Of a stretch of DNA of 32,000 nucleotides, positions 3,765 to 31,524 are shown one piece after another. The notes below the pieces were generated by a model, which was given only the letters and a program-made list of their open reading frames with translations, made no database searches and was not told where the DNA came from. The stretch comes from Clostridiales bacterium (GTDB taxonomy: Bacteria > Bacillota > Clostridia > Caldicoprobacterales > DTU083), in the NCBI GenBank assembly GCA_012838915.1, contig DUOI01000074.1, forward strand, positions 60,099 to 92,098, in the 5' to 3' direction. The position numbers and the translations under genes were made by a program. How positions within the stretch are numbered: the first letter of the stretch is position 1; the number at the start of each line of letters is the position of its first letter.

Positions 3765-3768
3765 ATTA

Positions 3769-4962: not shown

Positions 4963-4976
4963 AAGTGTTCTCCTTT

Positions 4977-5363: not shown

Positions 5364-5425
5364 TCACTACTCCTCCTGACATATGCTGTATTTCAGGGTT
5401 GTATTATTTTCTATGATTAGCTAAA

Positions 5426-5623
5426 TCAATACAATTTGAAGATGGATTTCACACTTTGAAAGAGTTGATTGATTAAGTTTATAACCATGAGCAAGACAAT
5501 AACAATTCCTGCCAATGTAGTCATCATGGCTATTTCTTCCCTGCCGGCTTTTTGAAGAACGATATTTATTATCGCTATCACAAGTCCTATAGCAGCGATT
5601 TTAAAAATCAAATCCACATTCAT
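5426..5623 (-). CDS. spoIIIAC: Stage III sporulation protein AC (SpoIIIAC)
   Basis: MNVDLIFKIAAIGLVIAIINIVLQKAGREE matches SpoIIIAC. The ATG at 5623 lies 8 nt after GGAGG. The track start at 5638 would add 5 aa. Confidence 0.9.
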   Translation of the reverse strand: MNVDLIFKIAAIGLVIAIINIVLQKAGREEIAMMTTLAGIVIVLLMVINLINQLFQSVKSIFKLY

Positions 5624-5638
5624 TTGTTTTTCCTCCAT

Positions 5639-6160: not shown

Positions 6161-6179
6161 CCATAAACCTCCTCCCTCA

Positions 6180-7178: not shown

Positions 7179-7204
7179 CAAATCTTCCTCCTTTGCTTAA
7201 TCTA

Positions 7205-9971: not shown

Positions 9972-10854
9972 AAATGGGAAGTGTTGAACAGGTACAATTT
10001 TTCTTCATAAATAGTTTTTAATGTCAAAGCATCCCTGGCCATTTTACCCCTGGATTCACAGATTATTACAGGATATATATCCCTCATAACGATTACCTCT
10101 GCCAAAGGATCAAAATCCGGACCAAAATCCTTGCTTTCATAAGTATGATGTTTTTTTCACCTGCAGCAGTGTATTCAACCCGGCTGAAGTGGGCATGAAA
10201 AGCTTTTCCCCGTTCCTTGCCTAACGCTTTTTCAATTGCATCGAGAACTGAGATGTAGTTTTTTGAAGATTGGAATATGCCCTGATGGAGTGCGTGCAGA
10301 TGTCCGAAATCAATGGTGGGCAACAAGGTTTCATCCAATTGGCAAAGTTCTAAAACCTCCTCCAGGTTGCCCAATTGGTTTTGCTTACCCATGGTTTCCG
10401 GGCATAGGCGGATTCCGTCAGCAATGTACGGACTACATTCCTCCAATGCCTGCAATAAGGTCTTTTTCGCTGTTTCTAAAGCCAGACCCCTGTCTTTCCC
10501 TGCCGAACCAGGGTGAAAAACTACCCGGGAGGCTGCTAACCACTGGGCTGCTTCGGCAGAACTAACCAGATACTGAACAGACCTTTGCCTGTTTTCTACT
10601 TGTTGGCTGGCTAAATTAATATAATAAGGAGCATGGACACTCATGGTAATTCCCCATTTTGCGGCCTGCTCGCCTATTTTCCTTGCTGTTAGCTCTTTTA
10701 ATCTAATTCCTCTGGTTAGTGAATATTCATATGCATTTAAGCCCATATCATGAAGCCACTTAGGCATGTCTATGCTGCTTTTGTAGCCTTGCTCGTAAAA
10801 ACTCTCATCGTTACCAGATGGACCGAATTTGACTTGTTTGTTAATGGGTAACAC
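9968..10854 (-). pseudogene. Endonuclease IV-like / xylose-isomerase-fold TIM-barrel gene, split by a 1-nt frameshift in an A7 run. This is either a sequencing error or a pseudogene.
   Basis: ORF 10093..10854 (KFGPSGN...SVHAPYYINLAS...DFGHLHA...HFSRVEYTAAGEK) ends in a junk tail after the homopolymer at 10151..10157. The +1 frame continues for 60 codons (HHTYESKDFGPDFDPLAEVIVMRDIYPVIICESRGKMARDALTLKTIY...). It stops at 9968..9970, overlapping the aroQ ATG as ATGA. Confidence 0.7.
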
Positions 10855-10867
10855 TTCCCTTAATAGG

Positions 10868-11380
10868 TTATTTTTTTGTATTAATTAATTGTATAATTTC
10901 TCTTGCTATCAAAAACGGGGATTTTCCGTCTACCACTACAATAAAATGTGCATCCTTATACAATGCAGCTCTTTGTTGATAAAGCCGTTCCAAGGTTTTT
11001 ACAGGATTATTTTCTTCAAGCAAGGGCCTGTCTGAACTGTCTTTCAATCTGTTCCATATGGTTTCTAAATTTGCTGTCAGAGCAACTACAATCCCGCTGG
11101 ATTTCATTCTGTTTCTATTGACAGGGCTTAATATCACGCCACCTCCTGTAGCCAAAACCTTATTTGAACCGCCTGCCGTTTCAGCCAATACACTTGATTC
11201 CAATTGTCTGAACCAAGCTTCACCCTTTTGTTTAAAAATCTCAGAAATGGAAAGGCCGGTAACCTCTTTTATAATCGTGTCCAGATCATAGAATTCCATT
11301 CCGGTCAATTCTGCCAGCTTTTTCCCCACTGTAGTTTTCCCTGTTCCCATAAAACCGGTCAGAAAAATATTTGGTCTCAT
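10868..11380 (-). CDS. aroK: Shikimate kinase
   Basis: 170 aa with Walker A GFMGTGKTTVGK, DLD and GGG motifs. The start overlaps the stop of the upstream pilO-like gene (ATGA). Confidence 0.9.
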   Translation of the reverse strand: MRPNIFLTGFMGTGKTTVGKKLAELTGMEFYDLDTIIKEVTGLSISEIFKQKGEAWFRQLESSVLAETAGGSNKVLATGGGVILSPVNRNRMKSSGIVVALTANLETIWNRLKDSSDRPLLEENNPVKTLERLYQQRAALYKDAHFIVVVDGKSPFLIAREIIQLINTKK

Positions 11381-11952
11381 TCTTCAATTCCTCTCACGAA
11401 AAAATTTAATGTCATTTCAACCTCTAAATTGTATCGTATTTTAGTATTTTTATCTATTTTATTTAAATCATTATTCTCAGTTTTAGCAGCTGAAATCTGC
11501 ATATAGGATATTGTAGGCCTGTTTTGAAGCTTTTCCAAACCAGACAAAAATTCTGATAAACCATAATTGTCCGTACTGAAGCTGAACCTAACCGGAATAA
11601 CTCTAAAATCCTGTCTCAAAATCGGATCGAGGAAAATTATACTATGTCTTTCTAATCTACTGGAGTTTGCATCAAGCAAATAAATGAGGTCATGTGAATC
11701 CAATTGCTCCGGCAGTTTTAACTTTTTCTCCAATATGGTTATTTGAAGTTGGTCTCTGTCTTCCAGGATGCTTTTAAGCTCTATTTTTTTGTTTTCTGCA
11801 ATTCTAGCGCTGTTTTGGATAACAGAAATATCCCGCAGTATCATATGGGTTTCTTTCAGAGTTGGATCAAGAAAAAAATGTAAATAAAGAGAGAATGCCA
11901 GTAATACAAATAGAACGAAGTAGAACAACAACTTTTTATTAGGGATTTTCAT
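11377..11952 (-). CDS. PilO-like type IV pilus assembly protein (second set)
   Basis: 191 aa with an N-terminal TM helix (LLFYFVLFVLLAFSLYL), a coiled-coil segment and an alpha/beta C-terminal domain. It follows the pilM/pilN-like genes with an ATGA overlap. Confidence 0.6.
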   Translation of the reverse strand: MKIPNKKLLFYFVLFVLLAFSLYLHFFLDPTLKETHMILRDISVIQNSARIAENKKIELKSILEDRDQLQITILEKKLKLPEQLDSHDLIYLLDANSSRLERHSIIFLDPILRQDFRVIPVRFSFSTDNYGLSEFLSGLEKLQNRPTISYMQISAAKTENNDLNKIDKNTKIRYNLEVEMTLNFFVRGIEE

Positions 11953-12518
11953 GGTATTCCCCCTCCTGTGATATCATAATCTTCGGTATTGGAATTCAGG
12001 GTGCATTGAATGATAAAATGAACTTCCTCTGGTTGTTGATACATAATTTTTAACATGCGCACCTCTGAAAAGCAGCCGCTATCCTTCAGGCTGCGCAAAT
12101 AAACAACCGATGTTTTGTCATTTTTACTTGTTCCAGTCAATAAAATGATGTTATTGTCACAGTTAAAATGATTAAGGCAGGAGTTTCCGGGTAAACAATT
12201 TATAATAGTGTCAAGTATGCTTTTCCAGTACTGAGGCGTGCCATCTTCCATTTCACGAAACGCATATATTCGCTGTTTTAATTCATCCGAGCCTGAGTGT
12301 TGATGAAGCAATACTTCGTCCAAATCTGAATAACCTGTTGTCTCTTCCTTGAGCAGAGTCAATTTATTAAGGGCTTCCCTTTTATTTTGAATGGGCACTA
12401 GAAAAGCATATTTAATAATTACAAAAAGTAATAGAATAAGTAATACAATTAGCAATAAACTCCTTGCAGCTATGGTTTTTTTTCTGTATTCTAAAGGAAG
12501 AAGGTTAAAATCTGTCAT
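11949..12518 (-). CDS. PilN-like type IV pilus assembly protein (second set)
   Basis: 189 aa. Its N-terminal DFNLLPLEYRKK matches the conserved PilN INLLP peptide that binds PilM. A single TM helix follows. Confidence 0.65.
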   Translation of the reverse strand: MTDFNLLPLEYRKKTIAARSLLLIVLLILLLFVIIKYAFLVPIQNKREALNKLTLLKEETTGYSDLDEVLLHQHSGSDELKQRIYAFREMEDGTPQYWKSILDTIINCLPGNSCLNHFNCDNNIILLTGTSKNDKTSVVYLRSLKDSGCFSEVRMLKIMYQQPEEVHFIIQCTLNSNTEDYDITGGGIP

Positions 12519-13470
12519 TTCTGATTTTCCTTTCCGTATTTAGTTTGTCTCCTTCCCAATACAATGAGCCAAGGCAGTTTGCATACAGATTCAAATCCAT
12601 ATCTGTGGGAATTTCAGATAAATAGAGACGGAAGTGATTTAATTGATTCCAACGTAAGGGAATTTGGTCTTTCAAATGAGATAAAACAGAAGCAGCAAAG
12701 GCGCCGCCTCCATAAAGTATGCCTTGTTGTAATTCCTCTTTATGAGAGCTGTGAATATAATGATCGATCATTTGCCAACATAGAATAATTATTTCCTGCA
12801 GATATTCATTCGAATTAGCAGGTGATTCTTCAATTATACGACAACCGATTGGGATGCCCTTAAGCGCTATTATTTCATCTATGTTAATAAGCGCAGCTGT
12901 CGTATTTTCATACCCCAAGTCCAGTACCAGGTAGGGCAATTCTTCAGATAGTTCCTTGCAACGTAACAGTATTTTCCTTATAACTCTTATAAATGCATTG
13001 AGTTGAATATCAACTGCTCTTGGTTTCAATCCTAAGCTTATAGCCTTCTCTATGTATCCCCGGTTAATACGCTTTGATATGCCTGCTGTTTTTGTAAAGT
13101 AGATTCCGGATTCTGAGTCATGAGATTGCACTGAATAATCAAAATCATATTCTTCCTTTAAATCGGTTTGATATTTTTGAAATTCATCGTGTATAATATG
13201 TTGCAATTGTAACTCATTATCGGCTTGCAATTTGAGTTCCCGGGTAATGAGCGATTTATGATGAAAAGATAAAACAACATCCCTGGAACGGCAACCAATT
13301 TTTTTCCACATTTTAGCAGGGAAATCTGAATTGAATAGTTCTGCTTCCTGACACAATCCATAGCGCAAAATTTGAAGTTTATTGGAGAGCTGAGCCTCAA
13401 TATACTTGTAGGAATGATTACCCATGTCCAAGGATAGAATGCGGCCGGGATGATTGAACACTATAATCAC
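12505..13470 (-). CDS. PilM-like actin-fold ATPase (second set)
   Basis: Actin-fold motifs LSLDMGNHSYKY (phosphate 1), LVLDLGYENTTAALI (phosphate 2) and ILYGGGAFAASV (adenosine). The start is uncertain: GTG at 13470, or GTG at 13461 after GAGGTG. Confidence 0.7.
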   Translation of the reverse strand: MIIVFNHPGRILSLDMGNHSYKYIEAQLSNKLQILRYGLCQEAELFNSDFPAKMWKKIGCRSRDVVLSFHHKSLITRELKLQADNELQLQHIIHDEFQKYQTDLKEEYDFDYSVQSHDSESGIYFTKTAGISKRINRGYIEKAISLGLKPRAVDIQLNAFIRVIRKILLRCKELSEELPYLVLDLGYENTTAALINIDEIIALKGIPIGCRIIEESPANSNEYLQEIIILCWQMIDHYIHSSHKEELQQGILYGGGAFAASVLSHLKDQIPLRWNQLNHFRLYLSEIPTDMDLNLYANCLGSLYWEGDKLNTERKIRNDRF

Positions 13471-13471: not shown

Positions 13472-15247
13472 TCACCATTGTGCGTTATAAAGAACTTCTT
13501 TACAGGATACTACTTCGAACAGCGGTTTTTCTCTTTCTATTCTAAAGAATTTTCTTAAAGAATCATCTTCACTGCTAAGCAAATTCAGAATAAGATCCTT
13601 ATCTTCCTGCAGGATTAAACTGCCTTCTATAACAAGATTCTCTCCGGCAATCAGCAGACCTGTAAACTCAACATCTGCATCCGACGGGATACAAATGGAA
13701 CCATTTGTCATTATAATTCCCCTATATTCCCCCGCAGGCAGAATCAAATCCTTTACTTCAGGCATGATGCAAATTACAGGTTGATCAGGATCTATTACAG
13801 ACAGGTAATTACCTTCAATTATGGCATTATAAAATGGTACTGGAGTATTGGAATTTAATTGATAATAATAATCCCATGCAGTTTTCAGTTTCATACTTCT
13901 CAGAATACCTTCAAAGAAAACTTCAGCCTCTGCCATCTGAAAAGGTTTCATAACCTGACCATTAGCAAAAATCAAGCCGGATATATGACTGGTTTGAAGA
14001 CTGCCGGTTTCTAATTGAATACTGTCCTGGTTTATTCCCTCCAGATGTAGCAAATATTGTTCCAGATCTTCTTCAGAGTCAGGCAGGGTACTTAAATATG
14101 CATAGATTAACTCTCCCTGTTCCGACCTGCTTAGGTCTGCAAAATCAGGTGTAAAAAATTGATAAGCATGTTCTGGTATTGAATCCGGAAAATAAAAATG
14201 ATGATTCCCGCCACCAATGCTTTCACTGCTATGATAATAATTATTTTCTATTGGAATATGCTCCATTCCAAACAGATACCTATTCTCGGTTACATATTGC
14301 AAGGTGCCGTTGATAAACACCTCATCCTTTAACTGAATGATTCCTCCATTAGTAGCTGAGATTCCCGCGGGCAAGGATTTTTCTTCGGGATTTACATATA
14401 ATTTGCCACTTATTTGAATTATGTTACCCCAACAGTCGACAGATAATATACCATAGGAATATACATCATTTGAGCAATTGAGAATGGACGGAGTTTCTCC
14501 TTCAACATGTAATCCACTGCATATGACTTCGCCATCAAAAAATGCCTCACAGTCATTGATTATGTTTATTTCTTCTCGGATCGCGGCTAATTCATGAAAG
14601 TTTATCCTACTGCTATTAGCAACATGCAATCCTCCTTGTACATGAATTGCGCCGAAAGATTCCAGGTTGCTTCCATTAACGACATATATATCATTACCGA
14701 TAAGCAGTGCTTTATTTAATAGAAAACTGTCATATACTTTGCTAACCTTATTAATGTATACCTCGGCATCAATACGTCTTCTGATTTTTCCCATGTCAGC
14801 CCGGGAGCTAATGAGAAGGCGGGAAGGATTTCGATATATATCGGTAAATCGAATTCGTATGTCCATTTTGGAATCAGATCGTATACCGGGAATTTCCGGT
14901 ATCGGAAAATTATTAAGATATCCCATATCCAACAGCTTCTTATTAATTCTAGGACCTAAACTGTTCTCAATATGTTTTCTGGCACTCTCTTGCATGCTGT
15001 ACATGGGCTGCTGTAAAGGATCCCATTGAAAGTCATCCATACATTCTTCGTGAACCTGAACAACCATATTGTACAATTCATTTTGTGCAAACCCCATCCC
15101 TGATTCTGCCAGATAGTAAACTTCCTGATGCATGTTGTTGTTTCGTGTTATGATGAGATGAGTGTCTGCAATAGCAAAAGCTGTAATCAACAGCATTGAC
15201 ATAGCAGCCATAATAAATAGGGTGATAATCAAAACCGAACCCTTCAA
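13472..15247 (-). CDS. Large PilX-N / GspK-like minor pilus protein (591 aa) without a canonical prepilin cleavage motif
   Basis: The N-terminus (GSVLIITLFIMAAMSMLLITAFAIADTHL...QEVYYLAESGMGFAQNEL) looks like a PilX N-terminal domain. The TTG start lies 4 nt after GGGGGTGA. The long C-terminal part has beta-strand-rich G-x-hydrophobic repeats. Confidence 0.6.
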   Translation of the reverse strand: MKGSVLIITLFIMAAMSMLLITAFAIADTHLIITRNNNMHQEVYYLAESGMGFAQNELYNMVVQVHEECMDDFQWDPLQQPMYSMQESARKHIENSLGPRINKKLLDMGYLNNFPIPEIPGIRSDSKMDIRIRFTDIYRNPSRLLISSRADMGKIRRRIDAEVYINKVSKVYDSFLLNKALLIGNDIYVVNGSNLESFGAIHVQGGLHVANSSRINFHELAAIREEINIINDCEAFFDGEVICSGLHVEGETPSILNCSNDVYSYGILSVDCWGNIIQISGKLYVNPEEKSLPAGISATNGGIIQLKDEVFINGTLQYVTENRYLFGMEHIPIENNYYHSSESIGGGNHHFYFPDSIPEHAYQFFTPDFADLSRSEQGELIYAYLSTLPDSEEDLEQYLLHLEGINQDSIQLETGSLQTSHISGLIFANGQVMKPFQMAEAEVFFEGILRSMKLKTAWDYYYQLNSNTPVPFYNAIIEGNYLSVIDPDQPVICIMPEVKDLILPAGEYRGIIMTNGSICIPSDADVEFTGLLIAGENLVIEGSLILQEDKDLILNLLSSEDDSLRKFFRIEREKPLFEVVSCKEVLYNAQW

Positions 15248-18055: not shown

Positions 18056-18898
18056 TTACAATTCGGGCTGATCTGCTGATACAGAATCGATTTCTGTATC
18101 TGTTGGTTCTGATGTCTCTGATGTAGTTTCTTCTTCATTAGAATCCTCCGGTGCTGCCTCTTCCTGTGTTGTTTGTTCCCCTGTCCTCGTTGCAGAGGTA
18201 AGCCTGAAAGGATTATCAGTACCCATAGGAGTGTTATAAGACCAGTTCAGAAACTCATCGTCTCCGGAATCATCGGCCAACTTCTTTAGTGAGTAGAATT
18301 CCATACTAATCGTTCCGCTGATCTTTCCGTCCATATCCCGTGTCATTTGAAGGCTGCTAAAAATAATATGACGATTCAAATTCTCCAACCGGCTGATAAA
18401 ATCCATAATCTTCGGATATGTTCCTTTAAATGGAATATCAATGGACATATATTGAATCTCTGGCAAAAAGGGAATTTCATCAGGATTTGGGTCTGTTGCT
18501 TCGGATTGTGTTTCTTCCTGGGTGATAATTGAATCCTCTTCTGACTGGATTTCCACTTCCATTAATTGGGCAAAATCAAGGGAATCAGCTTTGGTGCCGG
18601 ATGCTCGTAATTGTTCATCCATAATGATTAGCAGTTTTCTTTGCTGTAACTCTGGAAAAAAGTCTTCCGATAATGATTTAATTTCGCCTTTTAAAATGTT
18701 AAGTTCATCTTCCAGTTGAGGAAGAGACTGAATCTCTGACTTAACTGACTCTACTTGCCTGACCTTCTCATCCAACTCCGATCTAACATTCGTCAACTTA
18801 TCCAATTGCGGCGCTATAATGAAATAATAAGAAATGACTATTAAAGCTATAAAACCAACTAGTTTTAATAGGAAGGATTCCCTCTTTGTAAGTTTCAT
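18056..18898 (-). CDS. pilO: PilO-like type IV pilus assembly protein (first set) with acidic insertions
   Basis: 280 aa with a TM helix (LVGFIALIVISYYFII), a coiled coil, and the PilO core IDIPFKGTYPKIMDFISRLENL. It carries an acidic internal insert and a 45-aa E/T/S-rich tail. Confidence 0.7.
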   Translation of the reverse strand: MKLTKRESFLLKLVGFIALIVISYYFIIAPQLDKLTNVRSELDEKVRQVESVKSEIQSLPQLEDELNILKGEIKSLSEDFFPELQQRKLLIIMDEQLRASGTKADSLDFAQLMEVEIQSEEDSIITQEETQSEATDPNPDEIPFLPEIQYMSIDIPFKGTYPKIMDFISRLENLNRHIIFSSLQMTRDMDGKISGTISMEFYSLKKLADDSGDDEFLNWSYNTPMGTDNPFRLTSATRTGEQTTQEEAAPEDSNEEETTSETSEPTDTEIDSVSADQPEL

Positions 18899-19515
18899 TC
18901 TTCCATCACATCCTTTAGTTGACAGTCCATTATAAAGGAGTAAACATTCGTTGCTTCTAAACTATTTTCTTCAGGATTAGCATCAGCACTTAAAGAAATG
19001 GTGGTAATATTTGATACATGAACATCCTTGAATAAATCTAACGCTTGCATGTTGCTGAGGTATTCTGCGATAATCTTTCTGCTTGGAGCAGTTCCCTGTA
19101 TTTGCAAATGATCTGAAGTCATGGACAGATTATCAAAATATAATCCCTGTGGAATAGCAGAGGTAATTTGTTTAATATATTCAGTGCCAATTGTATCCTT
19201 CTGCTGAATATTCTTATAAAAGGAATTTAAAGAATCTGAATATTGTTTTAGGTTTTCGATTTCTTGTTTTCTTTCTTCTGCCATTTTCCATTGTATACTT
19301 ACTTCCTCCATTGAGAGATAGCTTTCAATGGAATTAATCTGATCCCGAGATGTTTGTATGGCGAATTCCAGTAGCAAATATACACCTGCAATTAACACTA
19401 AATACAATATAATCATCAATACAAGTATAATCCCCTTTTTCCTTGCAGACCGCTTTGAATCCATTGATGAAGAAAAAAAGTTATAGTCCATCTTGTGCAT
19501 TTCTATATTACTCAT
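18895..19515 (-). CDS. pilN: PilN-like type IV pilus assembly protein (first set)
   Basis: 206 aa. It has an N-terminal DYNFF variant of the INLLP peptide, a basic stretch and a single TM helix (IILVLMIILYLVLIAGVYLL). It overlaps both neighbouring genes. Confidence 0.65.
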   Translation of the reverse strand: MSNIEMHKMDYNFFSSSMDSKRSARKKGIILVLMIILYLVLIAGVYLLLEFAIQTSRDQINSIESYLSMEEVSIQWKMAEERKQEIENLKQYSDSLNSFYKNIQQKDTIGTEYIKQITSAIPQGLYFDNLSMTSDHLQIQGTAPSRKIIAEYLSNMQALDLFKDVHVSNITTISLSADANPEENSLEATNVYSFIMDCQLKDVMEE

Positions 19516-20566
19516 ATCGAATCAGGCCCCCTAATGCATTAATATAGTTCCTGGGGTTAAAATTGTATGCTCTCCTGGTTGGTTTTACGATGTTTAGGTT
19601 GTCTATATTCTTTGTTGGAATATTTAGAATGTGTTGAAAATAACTATTCAATCCATGCAACCTTGAGGAGCCCCCATACAGATAAATAGATTCAATTTTA
19701 TTTCCGGTTGTCCTGCTAATATAGTACTGAAATATCTTTTGTATTTCTGACAGCCAGATATCTATTTGGGAGCGGAGCACGTCATGGAAGGTATCCGATA
19801 TAAGATCACTAAACCCGTCCGGATTCAGGTCTGCATCCCGAATCTTTTTACTTTCCGCCTGCTTCATGGATAAATTGCATGCTATTGATATTTCATTGTC
19901 CAATTCCCTTGCTCCTAAGTTGATGATTCTACTGAAAGCAAGTTTTCCCTTCGAAAATATATGTATATTTATGCTACGATATCCCAAATCAATGAATGCA
20001 GATGTTTTTTCCTTATCCAATTCTATACCGTTTATAGCTGTAGTATGAGCAAGCAATTTGGCTACTGCGTTAGGATGAATATCCAGAGCAATCGGTTTTA
20101 AACCTATTTCTCTTATTAAATTCAAGTAATTTTCAACCATATTCTTAGGCATGGCGGCAACTTTAATCTTATATTTTTTCGCACCATCTTCTTCAATCTC
20201 ATCTGCTACGTAATATTCGATAACATACTCAGTAGTAACAATGGGCAAATGCTGTTCAATCTCATATCTTACCATATTGTCCAGCATCTGGCGCTCCGAT
20301 GCCGGTAATATTATGTCCCTGGAGATAATTGATGTACTCTGGATAGTCAAAACTACATTTTTTTCTTTGATTTTGTTGACGGAGATCAGTCTGCGGATGG
20401 AATCTTTCATTCGTTCAAAATCCTCAATTCTTCCATCCTTAAATACCCCTTCCTGTATGGGGAGGTGAGCTGCATTATTGACTATAATGCTGTCTTTGTT
20501 GTATTTACCGTGTACCATATGCAGATTTTGACTGCCTAAATCAAGGCATATTAGATTTTGACTCAA
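19508..20566 (-). CDS. pilM: Type IV pilus assembly ATPase-fold protein PilM (first set)
   Basis: Actin-fold motifs ICLDLGSQNLHMV, AFIDLGYRSINIHIF and IYLYGGSSRLHGL. The TTG at 20566 lies 6 nt after GAGGTG; the track starts at the GTG at 20575. Confidence 0.85.
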   Translation of the reverse strand: MSQNLICLDLGSQNLHMVHGKYNKDSIIVNNAAHLPIQEGVFKDGRIEDFERMKDSIRRLISVNKIKEKNVVLTIQSTSIISRDIILPASERQMLDNMVRYEIEQHLPIVTTEYVIEYYVADEIEEDGAKKYKIKVAAMPKNMVENYLNLIREIGLKPIALDIHPNAVAKLLAHTTAINGIELDKEKTSAFIDLGYRSINIHIFSKGKLAFSRIINLGARELDNEISIACNLSMKQAESKKIRDADLNPDGFSDLISDTFHDVLRSQIDIWLSEIQKIFQYYISRTTGNKIESIYLYGGSSRLHGLNSYFQHILNIPTKNIDNLNIVKPTRRAYNFNPRNYINALGGLIRYE

Positions 20567-20585
20567 CGAAATCACCTCTTATTTT

Positions 20586-22912: not shown

Positions 22913-24595
22913 CTAATCCAAACTATACGTAACTTTTAACATTTCATCCGATGTCGTTATCCCAGAGCGCACCAGCTGACTGCAACTGTCTCTCAGGTTA
23001 ATGGTGCCATATTTGGCCGCAGCATTTCTTAATTCATCAATGGAATCATGTCGATCAACCATTTCTCGAAGCTCACGTGTCATCAGCAAAATTTCATGTA
23101 TGGCAGTCCTGCCTTTGTAACCGGCATTATTGCATAGGCTGCACCCCTGCCCTTTGTACAATACATCGTTTTCGTTAAGCTGGAGAAGATCCATTTCCGA
23201 GTGAGACGGCTTGTATTCAATCTTACAATTGGTACAAATCTTCTTAACCAGCCGTTGGGCTACCACGCCGACAACCGACGAAGAAACCAAATATGGCTCA
23301 ATTCCCATATCAACCAGACGTGATACAGCGGAGGCGGAGTCATTAGTGTGCATAGTACTAAGTACAAGATGACCTGTAATTGCAGCACGAACGGCAATTT
23401 TAGCTGTTTCTGTATCACGGATCTCACCAATCATAATGATATCCGGATCCTGTCTGAGAATGGACCTAAGGCCACTGGCAAAAGTCAAACCCGCTTTAAT
23501 ATTGACCTGCACTTGATTTATCCCTTCCAGACGATACTCCACTGGATCCTCTACCGTGATTATATTACGACCGATTTTATTCAGCTCTTGCAGAACAGCA
23601 TATAAGGTGGTGGTTTTTCCGCTGCCGGTGGGGCCGGTTACAAGGATAATGCCATTAGGACTTTGAATTAATTTATCAAACATCCTGATATTTTCTGCAC
23701 TGAATCCTAGCTGGGTTTTTGTAAGAATGGTGCTGCTTCGATCAAGAAGGCGAAGAACGATTTTTTCCCCGTATACCGTGGGAAGCACAGATATACGAAG
23801 GTCAATATCTTTGTTGTCTATGTTCATATCAACTCTTCCATCTTGTGGAATTCTCTTTTCGGCTATATCCATCCTTCCAATAATCTTTATACGGGTGACA
23901 ATGGCGGAATGAGCTGTTTTAGAAGAAGTCATTATTTCCTGTAATTCCCCATCTATTCGGAATCTTATCCGGATATTTTTTTCAAAGGGTTCGATATGAA
24001 TATCACTGGCTCTGGCACGAACGGCATGCTGTATAATGGAATCTACCAACCTGACTACAGGAGCATTGGTAACTTCATTGAGTATTTCCTCTTCGATTTC
24101 GGTGATCTGTTCCAGTCCAATTTCCCTTGTGAAGTCTTCAACGGCTTTTTCAGCACTTTCCTTGCCATAATATTGATCTATGGCATTTTGTATATGATTT
24201 CGTAAAGCCAGCGTTGGTTTCACATTTAGCCCGGTAGCTATATTGACATCATCAATAGCATACAGATTTAAAGGATCAACCATAGCTACTGTCAATTGGT
24301 TGTCTTCTCTGGCAACCGGAATAAGCATATGCCTTCTGGCCAGACTTTCTCCGATTAACCTTGGAATCTCCGGATCGATTGACTGAGCAGTTAAGTCGAT
24401 ATAAGGGACTTTCAATTGGTATTCCAATGCTTCGATGAGCTGCCTTTCATTGATGATATCTTCCTCAATGAGCAGTTCCCCTAGTTTTTTTCCCTTGACC
24501 TTTTGCTTTTTCAGTACTTCATCCAGCTGCGACTGCGTGATTAATCCGGACTCCAAAAGAATTTCACCTAAACCCTTCTTGTTTCGGTTAATCAT
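22913..24595 (-). CDS. pilB: Type IV pilus assembly ATPase PilB (GspE family) with an MshEN-like N-terminal domain
   Basis: 560 aa. Walker A GPTGSGKTTT, Walker B DIIMIGEIRD, His box GHLVLSTMHTND and the tetracysteine motif CTNC...CSLC. It has a GGGAGG SD. Confidence 0.95.
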   Translation of the reverse strand: MINRNKKGLGEILLESGLITQSQLDEVLKKQKVKGKKLGELLIEEDIINERQLIEALEYQLKVPYIDLTAQSIDPEIPRLIGESLARRHMLIPVAREDNQLTVAMVDPLNLYAIDDVNIATGLNVKPTLALRNHIQNAIDQYYGKESAEKAVEDFTREIGLEQITEIEEEILNEVTNAPVVRLVDSIIQHAVRARASDIHIEPFEKNIRIRFRIDGELQEIMTSSKTAHSAIVTRIKIIGRMDIAEKRIPQDGRVDMNIDNKDIDLRISVLPTVYGEKIVLRLLDRSSTILTKTQLGFSAENIRMFDKLIQSPNGIILVTGPTGSGKTTTLYAVLQELNKIGRNIITVEDPVEYRLEGINQVQVNIKAGLTFASGLRSILRQDPDIIMIGEIRDTETAKIAVRAAITGHLVLSTMHTNDSASAVSRLVDMGIEPYLVSSSVVGVVAQRLVKKICTNCKIEYKPSHSEMDLLQLNENDVLYKGQGCSLCNNAGYKGRTAIHEILLMTRELREMVDRHDSIDELRNAAAKYGTINLRDSCSQLVRSGITTSDEMLKVTYSLD

Positions 24596-24636: not shown

Positions 24637-25812
24637 TTAAATAACCGTTTCAAGAAAATCACGTATGTAAAGCTTGTTAATCCCTTTAAAATCCAACTTA
24701 TATATCTCTGAGTTTCTATTTTCCAGAATAGTGTCCTTTATGGGCACAACCTTTTCCAATTCCAGCGGCCAGGAACCTTGGTTTTTAAAACCTCCTGCTT
24801 CAAAAAAGGCACGATGTGCAATTTTAAAAGCTTGTTTTCTATATAAATAAGACTGATTCATATCGTTTTTAATATCAACTACTACATGTTCGGAAATATA
24901 CATAAACATAATTCCCTGCTCGGGATAGCATTCAACATTATCGATATGCTGGTAATAGTTTTTCCAGAAAAGGAACTTCTCTGTGTCACTGCCGAGATAT
25001 TTTTCCATCTTATTTAAATTATTCCATTGGAGGAACTTGTTCTGATGTTCTTGTGCAATATTCTGCCAAAAAGAGCTGTTGGGAGGTAAGTCGAAAAGCT
25101 CAATCAAAAGGTAATTGATTTCCTCTATATATTCCAAAACATCCATGATTTCAATGTAATGTATTATTTGTGGTATGGGCTTGTTTTCCGATGCACTAAT
25201 CCAATCCATGAACAGCTTTGCATTCTCCAGGTAACCATCTTTATCACATGAAAGAAAGAATATTTCTACTATTGCATTGAATAGTTCACTATCATTTAAG
25301 AAATTATATCGCTTCAGGAAATCGTTTAATGTACTTTGTTCTGATTTTAGAGCAAATAAAGCCTGATAAACAAGATCCTCGCCTGAGAAGGTCATTCTGC
25401 TGGCAAAGGAATTGTTGAAATCCTCTGGATATTTTTTTTTCATATAGTCAGTCAATAGTTTAAAGGACTCTATTAGGTAAGGATTCGTATAATGTTCCTG
25501 TAGTATTATCCAGTTATAATGAAAAAGCCGTTTTTTAAGACGTAAGGAAAGAATAAAAATAAGTTTTTCCTTCAAAGTTGTACCTAGGTTCTGAATCAAG
25601 GCATGAAATATTAGCTCCAATTGACTGTTTTGGAGCTTTGTGGCAAAATCCTTTAATTCATTTCCCTGCAATCTATTAACCTGCAGAAGCAATTTCTCTA
25701 CCTCATCACTCATGTCTATCCGAGCGATTTCCTCTATAAAGGGATGATATTTTCGAATCATCTTAAGTGAAGCTTGAAATTTCGAGGCAGGAGTAAATAA
25801 AGCATATTCCAT
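24637..25812 (-). CDS. Hypothetical soluble protein (391 aa) with no recognisable family
   Basis: A long ORF on the coding strand, packed between the coiled-coil gene (56 nt upstream) and pilB (41 nt downstream). The ATG at 25812 lies 9 nt after AAAGGA; the track starts at the TTG at 25830. It has no TM segment and no NTP-binding or metal motif. Confidence 0.6.
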   Translation of the reverse strand: MEYALFTPASKFQASLKMIRKYHPFIEEIARIDMSDEVEKLLLQVNRLQGNELKDFATKLQNSQLELIFHALIQNLGTTLKEKLIFILSLRLKKRLFHYNWIILQEHYTNPYLIESFKLLTDYMKKKYPEDFNNSFASRMTFSGEDLVYQALFALKSEQSTLNDFLKRYNFLNDSELFNAIVEIFFLSCDKDGYLENAKLFMDWISASENKPIPQIIHYIEIMDVLEYIEEINYLLIELFDLPPNSSFWQNIAQEHQNKFLQWNNLNKMEKYLGSDTEKFLFWKNYYQHIDNVECYPEQGIMFMYISEHVVVDIKNDMNQSYLYRKQAFKIAHRAFFEAGGFKNQGSWPLELEKVVPIKDTILENRNSEIYKLDFKGINKLYIRDFLETVI

Positions 25813-25868
25813 TACGTTTTGTCCTTTCAAGTATCCGTTACCCTTGCATTCCTTTCCAATGCAACAGC

Positions 25869-27389
25869 CTATTCCAGGCGTTTTCCAAGAGAATCAATTA
25901 TCACCGGCAGGTCGTCAATGGAATCTCGTATCTCCAAGAGAGTATTACTTAAGCGTTGAGTAATTTCTGCAAGGCCTTCATCAAATTCGGTTATAGTTTT
26001 CTTGGTTCCCTTTTCAACTACTTCAGCAAATTCTTTCATGGTTTCCTTCAGACCGCTGCTTAGTTCGCTAAGATGAAGAGAAATCTCTTTGGAAGCTATG
26101 TTCATATCCTTGGAATACTCCTCCATATTTTGAACCGCAATTTTATGGGAATTCGTCCAGGAATCCATAGAATTAAATACGGAGCCTTCCAACTTACTGA
26201 TCATTTCTTCTGAAATATCAGAAAACTTTTTTAAAGAATACTCCAATTTGTCTGAGGTATCACTCTGATACTTTTGAATCGAATCATATATCTCGTGTAT
26301 GGATTTTTTGTACTCCTCCTTAAGGCTCTGCTTCTCCTGTTTTATATTGTCCAGCATATCGCTGTTAAAAGTGACGATATCGTTTAAGGTCTGGGATAGA
26401 AGTCGTAAATCATCCAGGCTGACTGAAAGGCTTTGGCTGCAATTAGAAATATGTTCATGATAATTAGCAATAGAAGAAATAATAGCTTCTGAAGCATCAT
26501 TAATCTGTTTTTGTATTTCTGCGCCTCTTATAAGTTCCTCCATACAGGATTCTGTCCGCGATACATTCTGTAATTGTGTAATCGAAAGATTTTGAAAGGT
26601 TTCACCCAATTCCTGCAATTGGTTGCCCATCTTACTGTTCAGCCCTTCGAGAAAGGCGTCAACCAGCTGATTCATCCCATTTTGCTGCATATCTGCAATA
26701 TGTTGTGCATAATTAGCCAGCCTGTTGGTCATATTGTCTAAGGATGATATTATTCGCTCTAATTTTGTATATTCATGTGTTAGAGGGATTTTACGACGAA
26801 TTATTTTATTAATTTCATGAGCCAATGCATCTGCCTTATTGAACATGGACCGTATAATCCGATCAAATAAATATGAAAGGAAAATTGCAAACAAAGCAAC
26901 GATTGCTACTTCGCCTACAGCAGGATACAATATTTGAGTCAAATCTGCATCTGGATGAGCAGTAACAAAGCGTAGAAAAAAGCAAAAGAAAGCTGCTACC
27001 AGCCCTATGGTGGTTAAAAATGACGGCACCGAAACGGTTTTATTCCTTTTAGTCGGCACATCAACCAGAGAATACTTATTGAAATATTCATCCCAATGGG
27101 GTTGTATGGACCAGTTTTCAACATAATCAGCCCAAATTGGCTGCAAAAAAGACTTTTGCCCGGCATCGTTTATAAAATATTCCACTTGGGATCGATTTAT
27201 ATCGCTGGAATTATCCAGCTTGGACAGGAATTCGAAAAAATATTTCAATTCCTTTATTACAGGCTTCAGTAGTAAAACAGGATAACGAATAAAAAATATA
27301 ATCCATAATAGAAGCAGAAGACCTAAAGAAATTTCCAAGGAAAATGGTACTACTCTTGCAGAAAAAAACTCTATCAATTGCCCTGACAT
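25869..27389 (-). CDS. Hypothetical 3-TM membrane protein with a roughly 330-aa cytoplasmic coiled-coil tail (ExbB/MotA/ZorA-like topology)
   Basis: 506 aa. AAGGAGG lies 8 nt before the ATG at 27389. Hydrophobic segments are at about aa 15-42, 117-140 and 150-175. The remainder is Q/E/N/S/L-rich with heptad-like spacing. Confidence 0.7.
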   Translation of the reverse strand: MSGQLIEFFSARVVPFSLEISLGLLLLLWIIFFIRYPVLLLKPVIKELKYFFEFLSKLDNSSDINRSQVEYFINDAGQKSFLQPIWADYVENWSIQPHWDEYFNKYSLVDVPTKRNKTVSVPSFLTTIGLVAAFFCFFLRFVTAHPDADLTQILYPAVGEVAIVALFAIFLSYLFDRIIRSMFNKADALAHEINKIIRRKIPLTHEYTKLERIISSLDNMTNRLANYAQHIADMQQNGMNQLVDAFLEGLNSKMGNQLQELGETFQNLSITQLQNVSRTESCMEELIRGAEIQKQINDASEAIISSIANYHEHISNCSQSLSVSLDDLRLLSQTLNDIVTFNSDMLDNIKQEKQSLKEEYKKSIHEIYDSIQKYQSDTSDKLEYSLKKFSDISEEMISKLEGSVFNSMDSWTNSHKIAVQNMEEYSKDMNIASKEISLHLSELSSGLKETMKEFAEVVEKGTKKTITEFDEGLAEITQRLSNTLLEIRDSIDDLPVIIDSLGKRLE

Positions 27390-27411
27390 TTAGAAGACCT
27401 CCTTGAACCCT

Positions 27412-28257
27412 CTAATTTTCTATCCTATCGGCAGTTTCGCTCATATACTGCCAGGAATATCGTGGGAGCGGGTATCCGAGCCAGATTTCAACCGCTCTCA
27501 GACCCTGACCTATTAACATACCTATGCCGTCACAAGTTCTGCAGCCTTGTTCTTTTGCATACCGCAACATGGCAGTCTGCCTCGGATTATATACAATATC
27601 ACAGACTACCGTATGATTTGCCAACTTGAATCCCTTAATTGGATTGTTTTTTATATTCGGCCACATACCAAGGGTTGTGGTGTTTATAATGAAGTCGGCA
27701 TTCGGTGATATTTCTGATGATGCTTTAGCTGTTTTGCAACCCTTATAATAATTAATGACTTCAGCTAATCTTTCCGCTTTATGGAAAGTTCGGTTGACAA
27801 TTTGAATGGCAGCAGGCTCTTCTTTTGCAGTATACACTCCTACAGCTCTGGCCGCCCCACCGGCGCCGAGTATCACAACATTCTTTCCTTTAAATGAAAA
27901 ACCTGAATTCTTCAGAGACGAAATAAAGCCCTGCCCATCGGTGTTATATCCTATCATTTTCCCGTTTTCTATCTTTACAGTATTGACAGCTCCGATTATC
28001 TGAGCTTCCATATCCGTATAATCCAACAAAGAATAAACGCTTTCCTTATATGGAACGGTTATATTAAAACCTAAAAATCCTAAAGCCAAAAACCCGTTTA
28101 TTGCTGCTTCCACTTGACTGGGAACTATATCAAAGGCATGGTAAACCATATCCAATCCGAGTGATTTATAAAGACTGTTATGAAGCAATGGAGAAAGGCT
28201 ATGAGCCACCGGGTGTCCAATCAGACCAACTATCTTGGTTGCCGGTGTGATTTGCAT
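27412..28257 (-). CDS. aroE: Shikimate dehydrogenase
   Basis: 281 aa containing GLIGHPVAHSLSPLLHN, FNITVPYKE, NTDGQGF and the GAGGAARAV Rossmann motif. Confidence 0.92.
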   Translation of the reverse strand: MQITPATKIVGLIGHPVAHSLSPLLHNSLYKSLGLDMVYHAFDIVPSQVEAAINGFLALGFLGFNITVPYKESVYSLLDYTDMEAQIIGAVNTVKIENGKMIGYNTDGQGFISSLKNSGFSFKGKNVVILGAGGAARAVGVYTAKEEPAAIQIVNRTFHKAERLAEVINYYKGCKTAKASSEISPNADFIINTTTLGMWPNIKNNPIKGFKLANHTVVCDIVYNPRQTAMLRYAKEQGCRTCDGIGMLIGQGLRAVEIWLGYPLPRYSWQYMSETADRIEN

Positions 28258-28882: not shown

Positions 28883-29617
28883 TTATTCGAACCCACTTAT
28901 ATTCTGGTTGCTTGAGACAATGAAATCAGGACTCATTTCCTTTGCCAGTTTCATTATCGCCCTCTTCTCAATTCTGGAAACATAGGATCGGGAAATACCC
29001 AATAGCTGAGCAATTTCCCTTTGGGTTCTGTTCTTGTCGTTATTGAGCCCATATCGCATCTCCAGAACTATCTGTTCCCTTTTTGTTAGAACGGATTGCA
29101 TTTTCTTACGTAGTTTTTTGGTTTGAAGCTTCAGTTCCACTTGGTCAGTTATCATTTCCGCATCAGTGCCTAATATATCAATCAAAGTGATTTCATTTCC
29201 TTCCTTGTCTATTCCTATGGGATCCTGGAGGGAAACTTCTCCTTTTGTTTTCTTGGAGGCTCGAATAGTCATTAAGATTTCGTTTTCAATACAACGGGCG
29301 GCATAGGTTGCCAATCTCGTTTTTTTTTCGGCATTATATGTGGAAATAGCCTTTATCAGCCCGATTGTACCTATGGAAATCAAATCATCCACCTCCTTAC
29401 CCGTGTTACAGTACTTCTTTACGATGTGTGCAACCAGCCTCAAGTTGTGTTCTATTAAAACGTTGCGAGAATCTTCACAGCCCTGAGCGTATCGTTTTAA
29501 ATGATAAGCCTCCTCCTCTGGATTCAAAGGCTGGGGAAAGGAATTATTTCCTGAAACATGCGCTAATATGAATAGGCATTTTGCCAAAATAAACAAGGTT
29601 CCGGTAATAGCCTCCAT
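28883..29617 (-). CDS. sigK: Sporulation sigma factor pro-sigma-K (uninterrupted)
   Basis: A hydrophobic pro-peptide (MEAITGTLFILAKCLFILAHV) is followed by NNSFPQPL, LIEHNLRLVAHIVKKY, DLISIGTIGLIKA, ATYAARCIENEILM and DPIGIDKEGNEITLIDILG. This is the SigK pattern rather than SigE. It has a GGAGGTG SD. Confidence 0.9.
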   Translation of the reverse strand: MEAITGTLFILAKCLFILAHVSGNNSFPQPLNPEEEAYHLKRYAQGCEDSRNVLIEHNLRLVAHIVKKYCNTGKEVDDLISIGTIGLIKAISTYNAEKKTRLATYAARCIENEILMTIRASKKTKGEVSLQDPIGIDKEGNEITLIDILGTDAEMITDQVELKLQTKKLRKKMQSVLTKREQIVLEMRYGLNNDKNRTQREIAQLLGISRSYVSRIEKRAIMKLAKEMSPDFIVSSNQNISGFE

Positions 29618-29648
29618 GATGTCACCTCCAAAGAATAAACCTGCCCTT

Positions 29649-29676
29649 TAATATATGAGGAAATTCTTTGAAATGT
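29649..29676 (-). promoter_or_regulatory. Candidate sigma-K/sigma-E type promoter of sigK
   Basis: The minus strand has AC (29676..29675), a 17-nt spacer and CATATATTA (29657..29649). This fits the sigma-K consensus AC-N17-CATAnnnTA and lies about 32 nt upstream of the ATG. Confidence 0.35.
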
Positions 29677-29703
29677 GCGGCTAAGGCTAAAAATTGGACA
29701 AAT

Positions 29704-31407
29704 TCAACTTTTAATATTCAACCAAATATCCCTTGCTATATCCTGAAAAATAGGAACTGCTGTTTCAACAGCCCCTCCTTCTTCCAAACTGAGCACTACG
29801 ATGATATATATTGGGTTATCCCTTGGAAAAAAACCGGCAAACCAACCATAGTTTGAACTTTTCAAATCACCGGAAACCTGAGGTGTACCGGTTTTGCCTG
29901 CTGTTCTCCCTACGATGGAATCCCTCATGTTTTTAGCAGTTCCATATTCTGTTACATCCCCCATCCAGTCCATCAATGCTGATGCGGTTTGTTGAGAAAT
30001 CACTCTGTGACCGGTTACTGATTCTTCCTGCTTGAAATCATATTTCGTAAAGTTCCCTTCTGGATCTACTAATCCATCAACAAGCTCTATGGGTTTACGT
30101 ATTCCACTATTTAAAATTGTAGCAATCATATCAGCTACCTGAAGAGGAGTAACCAGAATTGAACCTTGCCCGATTGCCAGATTTGCTATGCCTGATCCGA
30201 TGTATTCATCCTCTTCCATTAATCGACCTGCAGCATTGGGCAGTCCTATATCTATTGACCTGCCCAAGCCAAAACGTTTTGCTGTGCTAATTATTGTTTC
30301 GCCTCCAATCTCCTGAGCGAGTCGGATAAATGTATCATTGCAGGAATGCGCAAATGCCTCCCGTAAAGTTATGGTTCCCAGACCGCCTGTTGAAGCGTGA
30401 CAGGGCATCCAACGATTCCCCACCTGAATGCCTCCGCTGCAGGTAAAGGTTGTATTCCCGTTATAATACCCACTTTCAAGTGCTGCAGACGCCACTATGA
30501 TCTTAAAAACTGAACCTAGGGGATATTGTTCAAGGGGAATAGCAAGAAAGGATGAATCCATTCCATCCGTTTGCATTGCGATGGGATTATGCTGCTGATA
30601 TTGGGGTCGACTTGCCAATGCAAGAATACCCCCGGTAGCTGCATCAATTACTATGCCGCCGTGTCTGTGACCGGGGTATTTATCCAGTACCTGTTCCACT
30701 GTTTTTTGTATATTGTAGTCCAATGTGAGCTGTACATCGTACCACTTTCTTTCAGGTTCGTTTATCTGATACCCCAAGCTGAATATAGGTCGGTTTGCAG
30801 CATCAGAAAATACATTCACATAAGATTCCAAACCAGGATGCAGGTAGCTGCTGAATACCTTTTCGATTCCACTCATGGGTACATTATCCGACTTTCGCAA
30901 ATATCCGATTACATGCCTGGCTAGTGAATCATCATTGTACCGAATGTTTTCTTTGTAGCACAAAACACCATTAAACTGATTAGCTGCAACAGCCGCAAGC
31001 AGATCTTTATCCGGATTAATGACCGGCACATTGAATATTTCCATTGAATCACAGTTAAATTCCGTTTTATCTTTACCTGTCAAAGCTTTTATGACTTCAA
31101 AAGCCTTTTCATTGAAAGCAATAGTATGGGGAATAATTTTAAGTTTCCATATCTCTCCTGCCGAAGTAAAGGAAATACCGTTTCGATCCGTTATATTCCC
31201 GCTTTTTTCGTCCAGTACAATTTGGTCAATATGTTGATGCCTTACTCTGTTTGCATGCTCTTCTCCTTCCAGAATTTGAATGTAAAAAAGCCGCAAAGTA
31301 AGTAGAGCAAGCAAAAATGTAAACCAAGTGCCCAGCATTATAATACGTTTTTCTTTTTTTTTCCTGATTAATGCAGCTTTTCTTTTATCCATTCTGGATG
31401 TATGCAT
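29704..31407 (-). CDS. Class B penicillin-binding protein (PBP2/SpoVD-family transpeptidase, no PASTA domain)
   Basis: An N-terminal basic stretch plus a TM helix, then SxxK (GSVFK), SxN (HSCND) and KTG (GKTGTP). The ATG at 31407 lies 7 nt after AAAGG; the track start is 31422. Confidence 0.85.
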   Translation of the reverse strand: MHTSRMDKRKAALIRKKKEKRIIMLGTWFTFLLALLTLRLFYIQILEGEEHANRVRHQHIDQIVLDEKSGNITDRNGISFTSAGEIWKLKIIPHTIAFNEKAFEVIKALTGKDKTEFNCDSMEIFNVPVINPDKDLLAAVAANQFNGVLCYKENIRYNDDSLARHVIGYLRKSDNVPMSGIEKVFSSYLHPGLESYVNVFSDAANRPIFSLGYQINEPERKWYDVQLTLDYNIQKTVEQVLDKYPGHRHGGIVIDAATGGILALASRPQYQQHNPIAMQTDGMDSSFLAIPLEQYPLGSVFKIIVASAALESGYYNGNTTFTCSGGIQVGNRWMPCHASTGGLGTITLREAFAHSCNDTFIRLAQEIGGETIISTAKRFGLGRSIDIGLPNAAGRLMEEDEYIGSGIANLAIGQGSILVTPLQVADMIATILNSGIRKPIELVDGLVDPEGNFTKYDFKQEESVTGHRVISQQTASALMDWMGDVTEYGTAKNMRDSIVGRTAGKTGTPQVSGDLKSSNYGWFAGFFPRDNPIYIIVVLSLEEGGAVETAVPIFQDIARDIWLNIKS

Positions 31408-31524
31408 ACCGTTACCTTTCATTACTACATAATTGCAATCTTAGTTATGTTAACTTAAACGTTAATTCAGCTCGATTTCTTACCCTCTGGAGATTGCTTT
31501 TTTTTGAATATGAAGCCAAAAATT

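Follow-up and report, generated by a model that had tools for sequence, protein, structure and literature searches.

The zorA-like locus and its neighbors

The subject of this analysis is a 506-amino acid (aa) open reading frame (ORF506; gene A, zorA-like) in a 32,000-nt stretch of Clostridiales bacterium DNA (contig DUOI01000074.1), referred to here at its full length as the window. Zorya is an anti-phage defense system, currently viewed as a proton-driven rotary sensor to which a DNA-binding protein and a nuclease are recruited; ZorA is its membrane stator. ORF506 (25869–27389, minus strand, ATG start) encodes a very divergent member of the ZorA family within the MotA/ExbB/TolQ superfamily. 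The gene that follows it (gene C, zorC-like; 24637–25812, minus strand, ATG at 25812) encodes a 391-aa homolog of ZorC. Together with a zorB-like gene, B, that lies between them in orthologous loci, they form a three-gene module derived from compact type I Zorya from which ZorD has been lost.

The genes are tightly packed on a single strand. A Shine-Dalgarno sequence, AAGGAGG (27398–27404, minus strand), is read 8 nt upstream of the ATG of A, and 22 nt separate this ATG from the TAG stop codon (27412–27414) of aroE, the shikimate dehydrogenase gene (27412–28257, minus strand) that lies directly upstream and forms the left-hand boundary which the module keeps throughout the close clade. An earlier annotation made from the DNA letters alone, termed here the sequence-only reading, had described a 506-aa frame that starts 22 nt past the stop codon of aroE and has a strong Shine-Dalgarno sequence. 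This description holds, with the minus strand as the coding strand. The aroE-A, A-C, and C-pilB gaps measure 22, 56, and 41 nt; pilB (22913–24595, minus strand) encodes a protein with T2SSE and MshEN domains.

Protein architecture

The N-terminal part of the protein is organized around three hydrophobic segments, which Kyte-Doolittle windows place at aa 9–45, 118–146, and 150–180. The corresponding transmembrane (TM) helices, all encoded on the minus strand, are TM1 at ~aa 15–42 (27264–27347; hydropathy, alignment with ZorA TM1, and a helix with an AlphaFold confidence score, pLDDT, of 79–90), TM2 at ~aa 118–142 (26964–27038; hydropathy and ZorA alignment), and TM3 at ~aa 150–176 (26862–26942; ZorA and ortholog alignments). 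Lys/Arg versus Asp/Glu counts of 4:1 ahead of TM2, 0:2 between TM2 and TM3, and 7:3 past TM3 fit an N-out/C-in topology. AlphaFold predicts helices at aa 2–57, 121–142, and 150–200 (pLDDT 73–92) in a model that is confident for the first 200 aa. Hydropathy, flanking charges, and predicted helices thus agree with the three segments and the N-out topology of the sequence-only reading, and the strings that it quoted (KPVIKELK, PTKRNKT, TAHPDADLTQ, VPSFLTTIGL, and AVGEVAIVAL) are all found in ORF506. A cytoplasmic loop of ~75 aa joins TM1 to TM2; the TM2-TM3 hairpin follows, and then a tail of ~300 aa. A Glu embedded in TM3 (E160) had also been singled out as a feature. This residue is not conserved, orthologs having Glu, Asp, Gly, Gln, or Lys, and it was dropped as a candidate functional residue.

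The cytoplasmic helical tail (aa 200–506; 25872–26792, minus strand) is delineated by PADLOC ZorA models, periodicity, and AlphaFold. From aa 201 to 506 it is rich in Ser, Leu, Glu, Ile, and Lys, contains two Pro only, and is predicted to be entirely helical. Hydrophobic residues recur along the tail with a peak period of 3.64 residues rather than 3.5. This spacing is not heptad-like, and a classical heptad coiled coil was rejected on these grounds. The expectation of a long cytoplasmic helical tail was thus correct, while the heptad-like spacing ascribed to it was not. The ZorA tail has been described as a right-handed supercoil (PMC11946911), and the 3.64-residue period fits such an arrangement. 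If it is extended like ZorA, with the geometry taken from PMC11946911, the tail would measure ~40–45 nm. The most conserved part of the protein is the nearly invariant tail tip (aa 462–500; 25890–26006, minus strand), in which the invariant ortholog columns read T..TEFDEGLAEITQRLS.T..EIRDSIDDLP. An F-x-[DE]-G...L motif at the tip is common to canonical ZorA (F..FSEG...L), 57 distant relatives, Klebsiella ZorA, and the canonical locus L106, described below.

Relationship to ZorA

Only 12 close homologs of ORF506 are present among 5.8 billion proteins, and nearly all of them are 504–506 aa in length. An ortholog profile built from 11 of the 12 (A1) matches the tail-less Escherichia coli ZorA structure 8qyh with an E-value of 8e-8 across query positions 10–192, spanning TM1, the loop, TM2, and TM3. 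As the matched construct lacks the tail, the similarity is not a coiled-coil artifact. Alignment with Klebsiella ZorA1 by hhalign gives a probability of 96.2% (E 2.5e-9). When the single-chain AlphaFold model is compared with the PDB by Foldseek, ranks 1–6 are occupied by ZorA chains (E 6e-6 to 3.5e-3; TM-score on the target 0.54–0.66, with 0.62–0.66 for the top matches), followed by ExbB/TolQ (E 4e-3 to 3e-2) and, weakly, by MotA/PomA (E 0.3–0.7). The sequence-only reading had suggested a divergent stator-A-like subunit; the profile, hhalign, and Foldseek comparisons substantiate this suggestion and narrow it to a ZorA-like rather than a MotA- or ExbB-like protein. Identity as a flagellar MotA/PomA stator was rejected on the presence of three TM segments instead of four and on the weak structural match.

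Single-sequence scans against curated models stay below threshold throughout. Twelve PADLOC ZorA models match aa 213–503 at E≤1e-4 (best 1.9e-13), in the tail only, and Pfam MotA_ExbB (PF01618) has no match to ORF506 in the Pfam scan. Tail-only matches, including Apolipoprotein-type ones, involve low-complexity sequence and may be compositional. They were set aside as proof of homology, and the TM-domain match is used as evidence instead. The NCBIfam ZorA subfamilies score 23–25 bits against cut-offs of 100–250, i.e., below every curated cut-off, and the precomputed Pfam family PF28082, 'ZorA-like_t1', is assigned at faint-to-weak levels to orthologs and to a near-identical copy of the protein in another assembly (locus L017). 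An exhaustive profile search retrieves 860 representatives at E≤1e-3. Among 57 sampled distant relatives, 43 match NCBIfam ZorA models, with E-values down to 1e-59, and 17 match Pfam MotA_ExbB. A metagenome scan seeded with a four-sequence ZorA alignment returned no matches.

Comparison with the ZorA of type I Zorya (E. coli NCTC9026, PDB 8QYD; Shewanella, 8VVN) reveals a shared 3-TM, N-out design with a W-x-[DE] loop motif, a Pro before TM2, a Gly and a Phe in TM2, a Ser in TM3, a long all-helical tail of non-heptad ~3.64 period, the F-x-E/D-G tip, and the gene order A-B-C. The window protein differs in being only ~15% identical, in its shorter tail (~300 versus ~500 aa), in a degenerate GxxGTFxG motif with Ala at the positions of T147 and S184, and in its location in the pilus operon of a Gram-positive host. 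The ExbB/TolQ proteins of the Ton and Tol-Pal systems are alike in 3-TM topology and membrane-domain fold. In contrast with them, the window protein carries a 300-aa tail, goes unmatched by PF01618, and is without an ExbD/TolR or TonB/TolA partner.

The deleted zorB-like gene

The sequence-only reading had noted that the window encodes no B subunit and no ZorD-like protein, and tblastn accordingly detects no ZorB-like gene in the 32 kb. The view of ORF506 as an orphan, minimal by design, did not survive comparison with its orthologs. Approximately 11 distinct orthologous loci with enough flanking sequence, some of them recovered from more than one assembly, share the order aroE-A-B-C-pilB, pilT, pilC, pilM, pilN, pilO, pilD. 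In these loci A measures 504–510 aa, with the single exception of L027 (542 aa), B is 258–277 aa with one TM segment, a coiled coil, and an OmpA domain, and C is 381–432 aa and matches no Pfam family. The best PDB match of B is ZorB (8qyd_F, E 5e-13), and hhalign to ZorB gives 98% (E 3e-14).

A remnant of the B gene is still present in the window. The 56-nt A-C spacer aligns with the final ~40 nt of B in loci L005 and L007 (...TTGAAAGGACAAAACGTA-ATG in the window against TTTGAAAGGACAAACACATA-ATG at the 3′ end of B in L005 and L007), and the relic occupies 25813–25856 on the minus strand. The alignment indicates that an internal deletion removed zorB in the species of the window and left this 3′ relic. 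The same B-less junction occurs in GCA_040364295.1 and GCA_033809615.1 (loci L017 and L018), which are 99.9% identical to the window; an assembly artifact is ruled out by the identical junction in three assemblies. B has been lost twice, in this species and in locus L024 (contig SRR29026315_10604, 8001–10957), where a 523-aa ZorA-like protein with the canonical GTF is followed, after 210 nt with no ZorB in between, by a ZorC-like gene. The genes upstream of the L024 pair are of serine-biosynthesis type, not pilus genes.

These observations bear on the proposal that ORF506 is a stand-alone ExbB/MotA-like ion channel that has no B subunit or whose B subunit is encoded elsewhere in the genome. 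Its ExbB/TolQ-like fold and the lack of a B gene in the window would suit such a channel. The B gene was adjacent, and its deletion left a relic; Pfam MotA_ExbB goes unmatched; the channel motif and both filter positions of the window protein are hydrophobic or degenerate; and the B proteins of the orthologous loci lack the acidic residue in their TM helix. A stand-alone channel is very improbable.

The ZorC-like neighbor and compact Zorya systems

The 391-aa gene downstream of A went undiscussed in the sequence-only reading, which left the long tail without a partner. Its AlphaFold model (pLDDT 87, pTM 0.79) has ZorC (8r68) as its top PDB match in Foldseek, with E 3e-3 and a probability of 1.0 at a TM-score of only 0.31; the next match is ten times weaker. 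Scans of the window protein against Pfam, PADLOC, and NCBIfam gave no matches, and neither did a PDB sequence search with the C-family profile. Direct alignment of the C family with Klebsiella ZorC by hhalign is not significant (0.2%), its sole local match placing D313 on ZorC E400. The homology of C to ZorC is thus established only via intermediate metagenome sequences together with Foldseek.

The intermediates come from 80 metagenome loci that were retrieved by a scan with the B alignment as seed and annotated with hidden Markov models (HMMs) built in this analysis. B occurs in all 80 and almost without exception immediately follows A; a C of ~395 aa is present as well in about half of the loci. 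In 18 of the 80, a ~930-aa SNF2 protein matching Klebsiella ZorD is also encoded, which makes them compact type I Zorya systems. The third gene of the ZorABCD loci is matched by the C-family HMM at E 1e-11 to 1e-32. L106 is the nearest canonical relative that was looked up directly and encodes A, B, C, and D of 550, 245, 391, and 926 aa, with a faint EH_Signature match in C and ResIII/SNF2/Helicase_C matches in D. The window C protein is 24% identical to the protein in the ZorC position of L106 over 340 aa (BLASTP E 1e-16), and the 391-aa neighbor of ORF506 is a ZorC homolog.

The compact, Firmicute-type ZorABCD system of L106 resembles the module in protein sizes, tail, and tail tip; its C can be aligned over ~340 aa, and the peptidoglycan-binding domains of the B proteins are highly similar. 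L106 differs in keeping GILGTF, the ZorB Asp, the R/W/E/H/W network of ZorC, and ZorD, all of which are lost in the subclade of the window. Canonical loci also differ in being without pilus genes nearby.

The scan also recovered loci of another layout (L048, L049, L064, L067, L069, L072, L073, L077, and others), in which a short ZorA-like protein (~380–440 aa) is followed by a long Asp-type ZorB-like protein (~320–380 aa), with no ZorC-like or ZorD-like gene detected nearby. These may represent other Zorya types or undescribed ZorAB modules.

Loss of motor and DNA-binding residues and of ZorD

Canonical ZorB carries the motif W-x-S-[YF]-[SA]-D-[ML]-M, which includes the essential, proton-carrying Asp and is present in 71 of the 71 canonical B proteins with a readable N-terminus. 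All pilus-linked B proteins have an invariant Asn at what aligns as the Asp position. The B protein of L022 reads WMSFTNVMI, in exact register with WISYADLMT of ZorB, and the close clade reads WNxxN-hydrophobic, with Asp and Glu absent from the entire TM helix. In a neighbor-joining tree, the Asn-type B proteins cluster in a single clade within the Asp-type ZorB proteins, with one Asp-type sequence at its base. This basal sequence is the Asp-type ZorB of L098 (4826–7497, WPTFTD). The ZorA-like gene of this locus (648 aa) is very divergent, and neither ZorC nor ZorD nor pil genes were detected there; L098 could be the closest non-pilus outgroup.

Canonical ZorA carries PG..T..GILGTF.GL..G in TM2 and a Ser at the S184 position of TM3, the G-T-F-x-G and the Ser being near-invariant in 35 canonical sequences. 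In the 506-aa clade, G146 is replaced by Ala or Leu, T147 by Ser or Ala, G150 by Cys, and S184 by Ala or Val. The window protein reads A132-A133-F134-F135-C136, with Ala133 at the position of T147 and Ala165 at that of S184, so that both ion-filter positions are Ala. Residues P122, G129, and F134 align with ZorA P136, G143, and F148, and ZorA S191 aligns with the invariant Ser172. The TM2 and TM3 strings of the sequence-only reading, proposed as loose counterparts of the ExbB/TolQ/MotA motifs, consequently do not imply a working channel. GTF is retained in the L022/L024 branch, and the Asp-to-Asn change in ZorB therefore appears to have preceded the degeneration of ZorA.

The EH network of ZorC comprises R335, W339, E400, H443, and W458 (Klebsiella/E. 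coli numbering). These residues vary little or not at all across 22 canonical C proteins and L106. At these positions, ten pilus-linked C proteins have K/I/L, W/F, D/A/C, Y/F/T, and G/N/C/D, the His and the second Trp being lost in all ten; the window C protein has K279, W283, D313, F375, and N379. The C proteins of the close clade are acidic, with net charges between -4 and -17; the mean is -8.7 in the ten pilus-linked proteins versus +2.2 in canonical ones. No ZorD match was found in the window or in any pilus-linked locus. The substitution of Asn for Asp in ZorB, the loss of the Glu/His/Trp signature of ZorC, and the loss of ZorD span the whole pilus-linked clade, and the degenerate GxxGTFxG and ion filter of ZorA belong to the 506-aa subclade.

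The corresponding positions have been mutated in E. coli, as reported in PMC11946911. There, ZorB D26N abolishes Zorya defense and ZorD recruitment, the ZorA T147A/S184A double mutant is non-functional, and ZorC E400A and H443A abolish DNA binding and defense. The ZorB(D26N) complex still forms foci and co-localizes with ZorC on infection, not with ZorD (PMC11946911). The parts retained in the pilus-linked module match those of this D26N complex, in which foci and ZorC co-localization are kept and ZorD is not. The natural proteins carry substitutions equivalent to those of the laboratory mutants, with Asn in the ortholog ZorB and Ala/Ala in the window ZorA. Whereas the mutants represent an engineered loss of defense (PMC11946911), their natural counterparts have become fixed within a pilus operon, where they are conserved and evolve under purifying selection.

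Association with type IV pilus operons

In all ~11 distinct orthologous loci recovered, the module lies on one strand between aroE and pilB. In the window, pilB begins 41 nt downstream of C and is followed by pilT, pilC, pilM, pilN, pilO, and pilD together with pilins, as far as ~11377. A second pilus gene order is present in loci L022 and L023, where the A protein (P0017) is 27% and the C protein 31% identical to those of the window. It runs pilM-pilN-pilO-like-DUF7305-pilin-large pilin-A-B-C-CHASE4/GGDEF/HD-pilB-pilC-pilin. Asp-type ZorB loci for which 4 kb or more of downstream sequence is available number 46, and none of them has pil genes; every Asn-type locus with enough flank does. No known pilus family appears among the Pfam or NCBIfam matches of A or C, and the orthologs are all unnamed or 'hypothetical', so that no pilus function had already been assigned to them. 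The organisms that carry the module are uncultured Clostridia, for the most part from digesters and bioreactors, and the close clade occurs in five GTDB species only. Between an association with pilB and one with defense islands, both of which had been raised, the orthologs fall on the side of pilB; the module is not in a defense island.

Several neighboring genes are of interest in themselves. The pilus cluster of the window contains two pilM/pilN/pilO-like sets, the first at 19508–20575, 18895–19515, and 18056–18898 and the second at 12505–13470 (a weak PilM_2 match), 11949–12518, and 11377–11952, as well as a 591-aa protein (13472–15247) without a Pfam match. Shikimate-pathway genes flank the cluster and the Zorya-derived genes, with aroE (27412–28257) upstream and aroK-like and aroQ-like genes (9465–11380) downstream, and this border is kept in all close relatives. 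Hints of cyclic di-GMP (c-di-GMP) signaling are provided by the CHASE4-GGDEF-HD protein between the ZorC-like gene and pilB in L022 (9724–11961), by an EAL domain (PF00563) fused to two distant ZorA-like proteins (P0185 and P0189), and by the MshEN domain of the window PilB. Further out, at 2535–7181 and 28883–31422, lie ORFs that we take, from their size and sequence, to be a spoIIIA-like operon, a sporulation-type sigma factor, and an SpoVD-like penicillin-binding protein; if the spoIIIA-like and SpoVD-like identities hold, the host is presumably a spore-forming, Clostridium-like organism.

The location raises the question of whether the module still serves defense, as a Zorya variant that lacks ZorD and guards the pilus against pilus-dependent phages. 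The proposed output would be a block of DNA entry, or a switching off of PilB/PilT extension and retraction upon envelope perturbation. Type IV pili commonly serve as phage receptors, all three proteins descend from a proven defense system, and the module is under purifying selection; the E. coli ZorB(D26N) complex retains foci and infection-dependent co-localization with ZorC (PMC11946911). Against such a role, the residues shown to be needed for defense are gone (the ZorB Asp, T147 and S184 in the window ZorA, and E400 and H443 in ZorC), ZorD is absent, and the module is inherited vertically and in synteny with a housekeeping-like operon rather than in a defense island. Zorya is also reported to be under-represented in single-membrane bacteria (PMC11946911). 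A pilus-guarding defense variant is the strongest competing explanation, though unlikely on this balance. Of the two options left by the sequence-only reading, a pilus-associated component is favored over a minimal Zorya sensor.

Selection on the module

Uncorrected ratios of nonsynonymous to synonymous differences (pN/pS) among the window, L005, and L007 are 0.25–0.32 for A, 0.11 for B, and 0.20–0.28 for C, compared with 0.05–0.11 for pilB. All three module genes are under purifying selection, and ORF lengths are kept across 42–63% protein identity.

A competing explanation is a decaying, functionless Zorya remnant. In this scenario, a Zorya system that by chance inserted next to pilB in an ancestor is being lost piecemeal: ZorD, then the catalytic residues, and then zorB. 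The progressive loss of functional residues, the deletion of zorB to a relic in the lineage of the window, the second B-less lineage (L024), and the evolution of A and C at 2–5 times the rate of pilB are all compatible with decay. It is countered by intact, length-conserved ORFs in at least five GTDB species and many metagenome lineages, by pN/pS values (0.11–0.32) well under 1, by the invariant tail tip, the many invariant residues of C, and the invariant ZorB Asn, and by the presence of the module in a second pilus gene order at ~27–30% identity. As an overall explanation, decay has a low probability; it is improbable for the clade as a whole and possible for the window's own copy.

Proposed function

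The explanation that best accommodates these data is that a ZorA(B)C scaffold of Zorya origin, domesticated and no longer rotating, serves the pilus machine, with zorB deleted in the species of the window. We assign it a probability of roughly 0.6. By analogy with Zorya, A would still form a ZorA-type membrane pentamer, and its cytoplasmic helical stalk of ~40–45 nm would hold the ZorC-like protein at the conserved tip. ZorB, where present, would anchor the complex to peptidoglycan. Such a complex would be unable to run as an ion-driven rotary motor and, having no nuclease, could not degrade DNA. It may instead have been recruited to the pilus machine, where it would act as a static scaffold or as a regulatory accessory that positions, anchors, or controls PilB/PilT. 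Gram-positive type IV pili are without the secretin and the peptidoglycan anchors of Gram-negative systems. A more specific and more tentative version, which we rate at somewhat under even odds, is that a 5:2 stator-derived complex without ion pathway or nuclease would form the fixed, peptidoglycan-anchored stalk of the type IV pilus machine in a Gram-positive cell. On the cytoplasmic side, its ZorA tail together with the ZorC-like protein would act as a platform, either for PilB/PilT or for the handling of DNA.

Several considerations weigh against a pilus scaffold. Pentamer formation and the binding of C to the tail tip are projected from Zorya by analogy only. The pilus link consists of gene order, in ~11 distinct loci with two arrangements, all from uncultured organisms. 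The synteny of the close clade could stem from one ancestral insertion, leaving only the L022 arrangement as independent, and core operons can harbor defense genes. The A-C pair of L024, which has no B, shows no pilus genes in the available flank, its contig ending right after C. The equivalence of Asp and Asn in ZorB is drawn from a short TM alignment in which the close clade is one residue off relative to the conserved Trp; the lack of any Asp or Glu in the helix is a direct observation. Finally, the loss of zorB in the lineage of the window might signal decay rather than streamlining.

Implications

A search of one literature library found nothing on ZorA-like genes in pilus operons, on a natural Asn-type ZorB, or on a ZorC lacking the EH network. 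The papers it yielded on Zorya together with type IV pili treat the pili only as phage receptors, and pili go unmentioned in two Zorya structure papers and a stator-evolution preprint. The window and its orthologs represent a natural lineage in which the three-protein chassis is kept under selection with substitutions at positions whose mutation abolishes defense in E. coli.

If the module serves the pilus, it would be a case of defense-system domestication and a candidate envelope anchor for Gram-positive type IV pili. If it still serves defense, neither rotation nor a nuclease would be required for Zorya-like sensing. In both cases, the roles of the ZorA tail and ZorC are separated here from motor activity, which bears on an open question in the Zorya field, and the A-C-only state of the window genome offers a natural minimal version for experiments. 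Should the fixed-stalk interpretation be true, the module would be the first anti-phage Zorya exapted into a cell-surface nanomachine, or a clue to the origin of Zorya itself.

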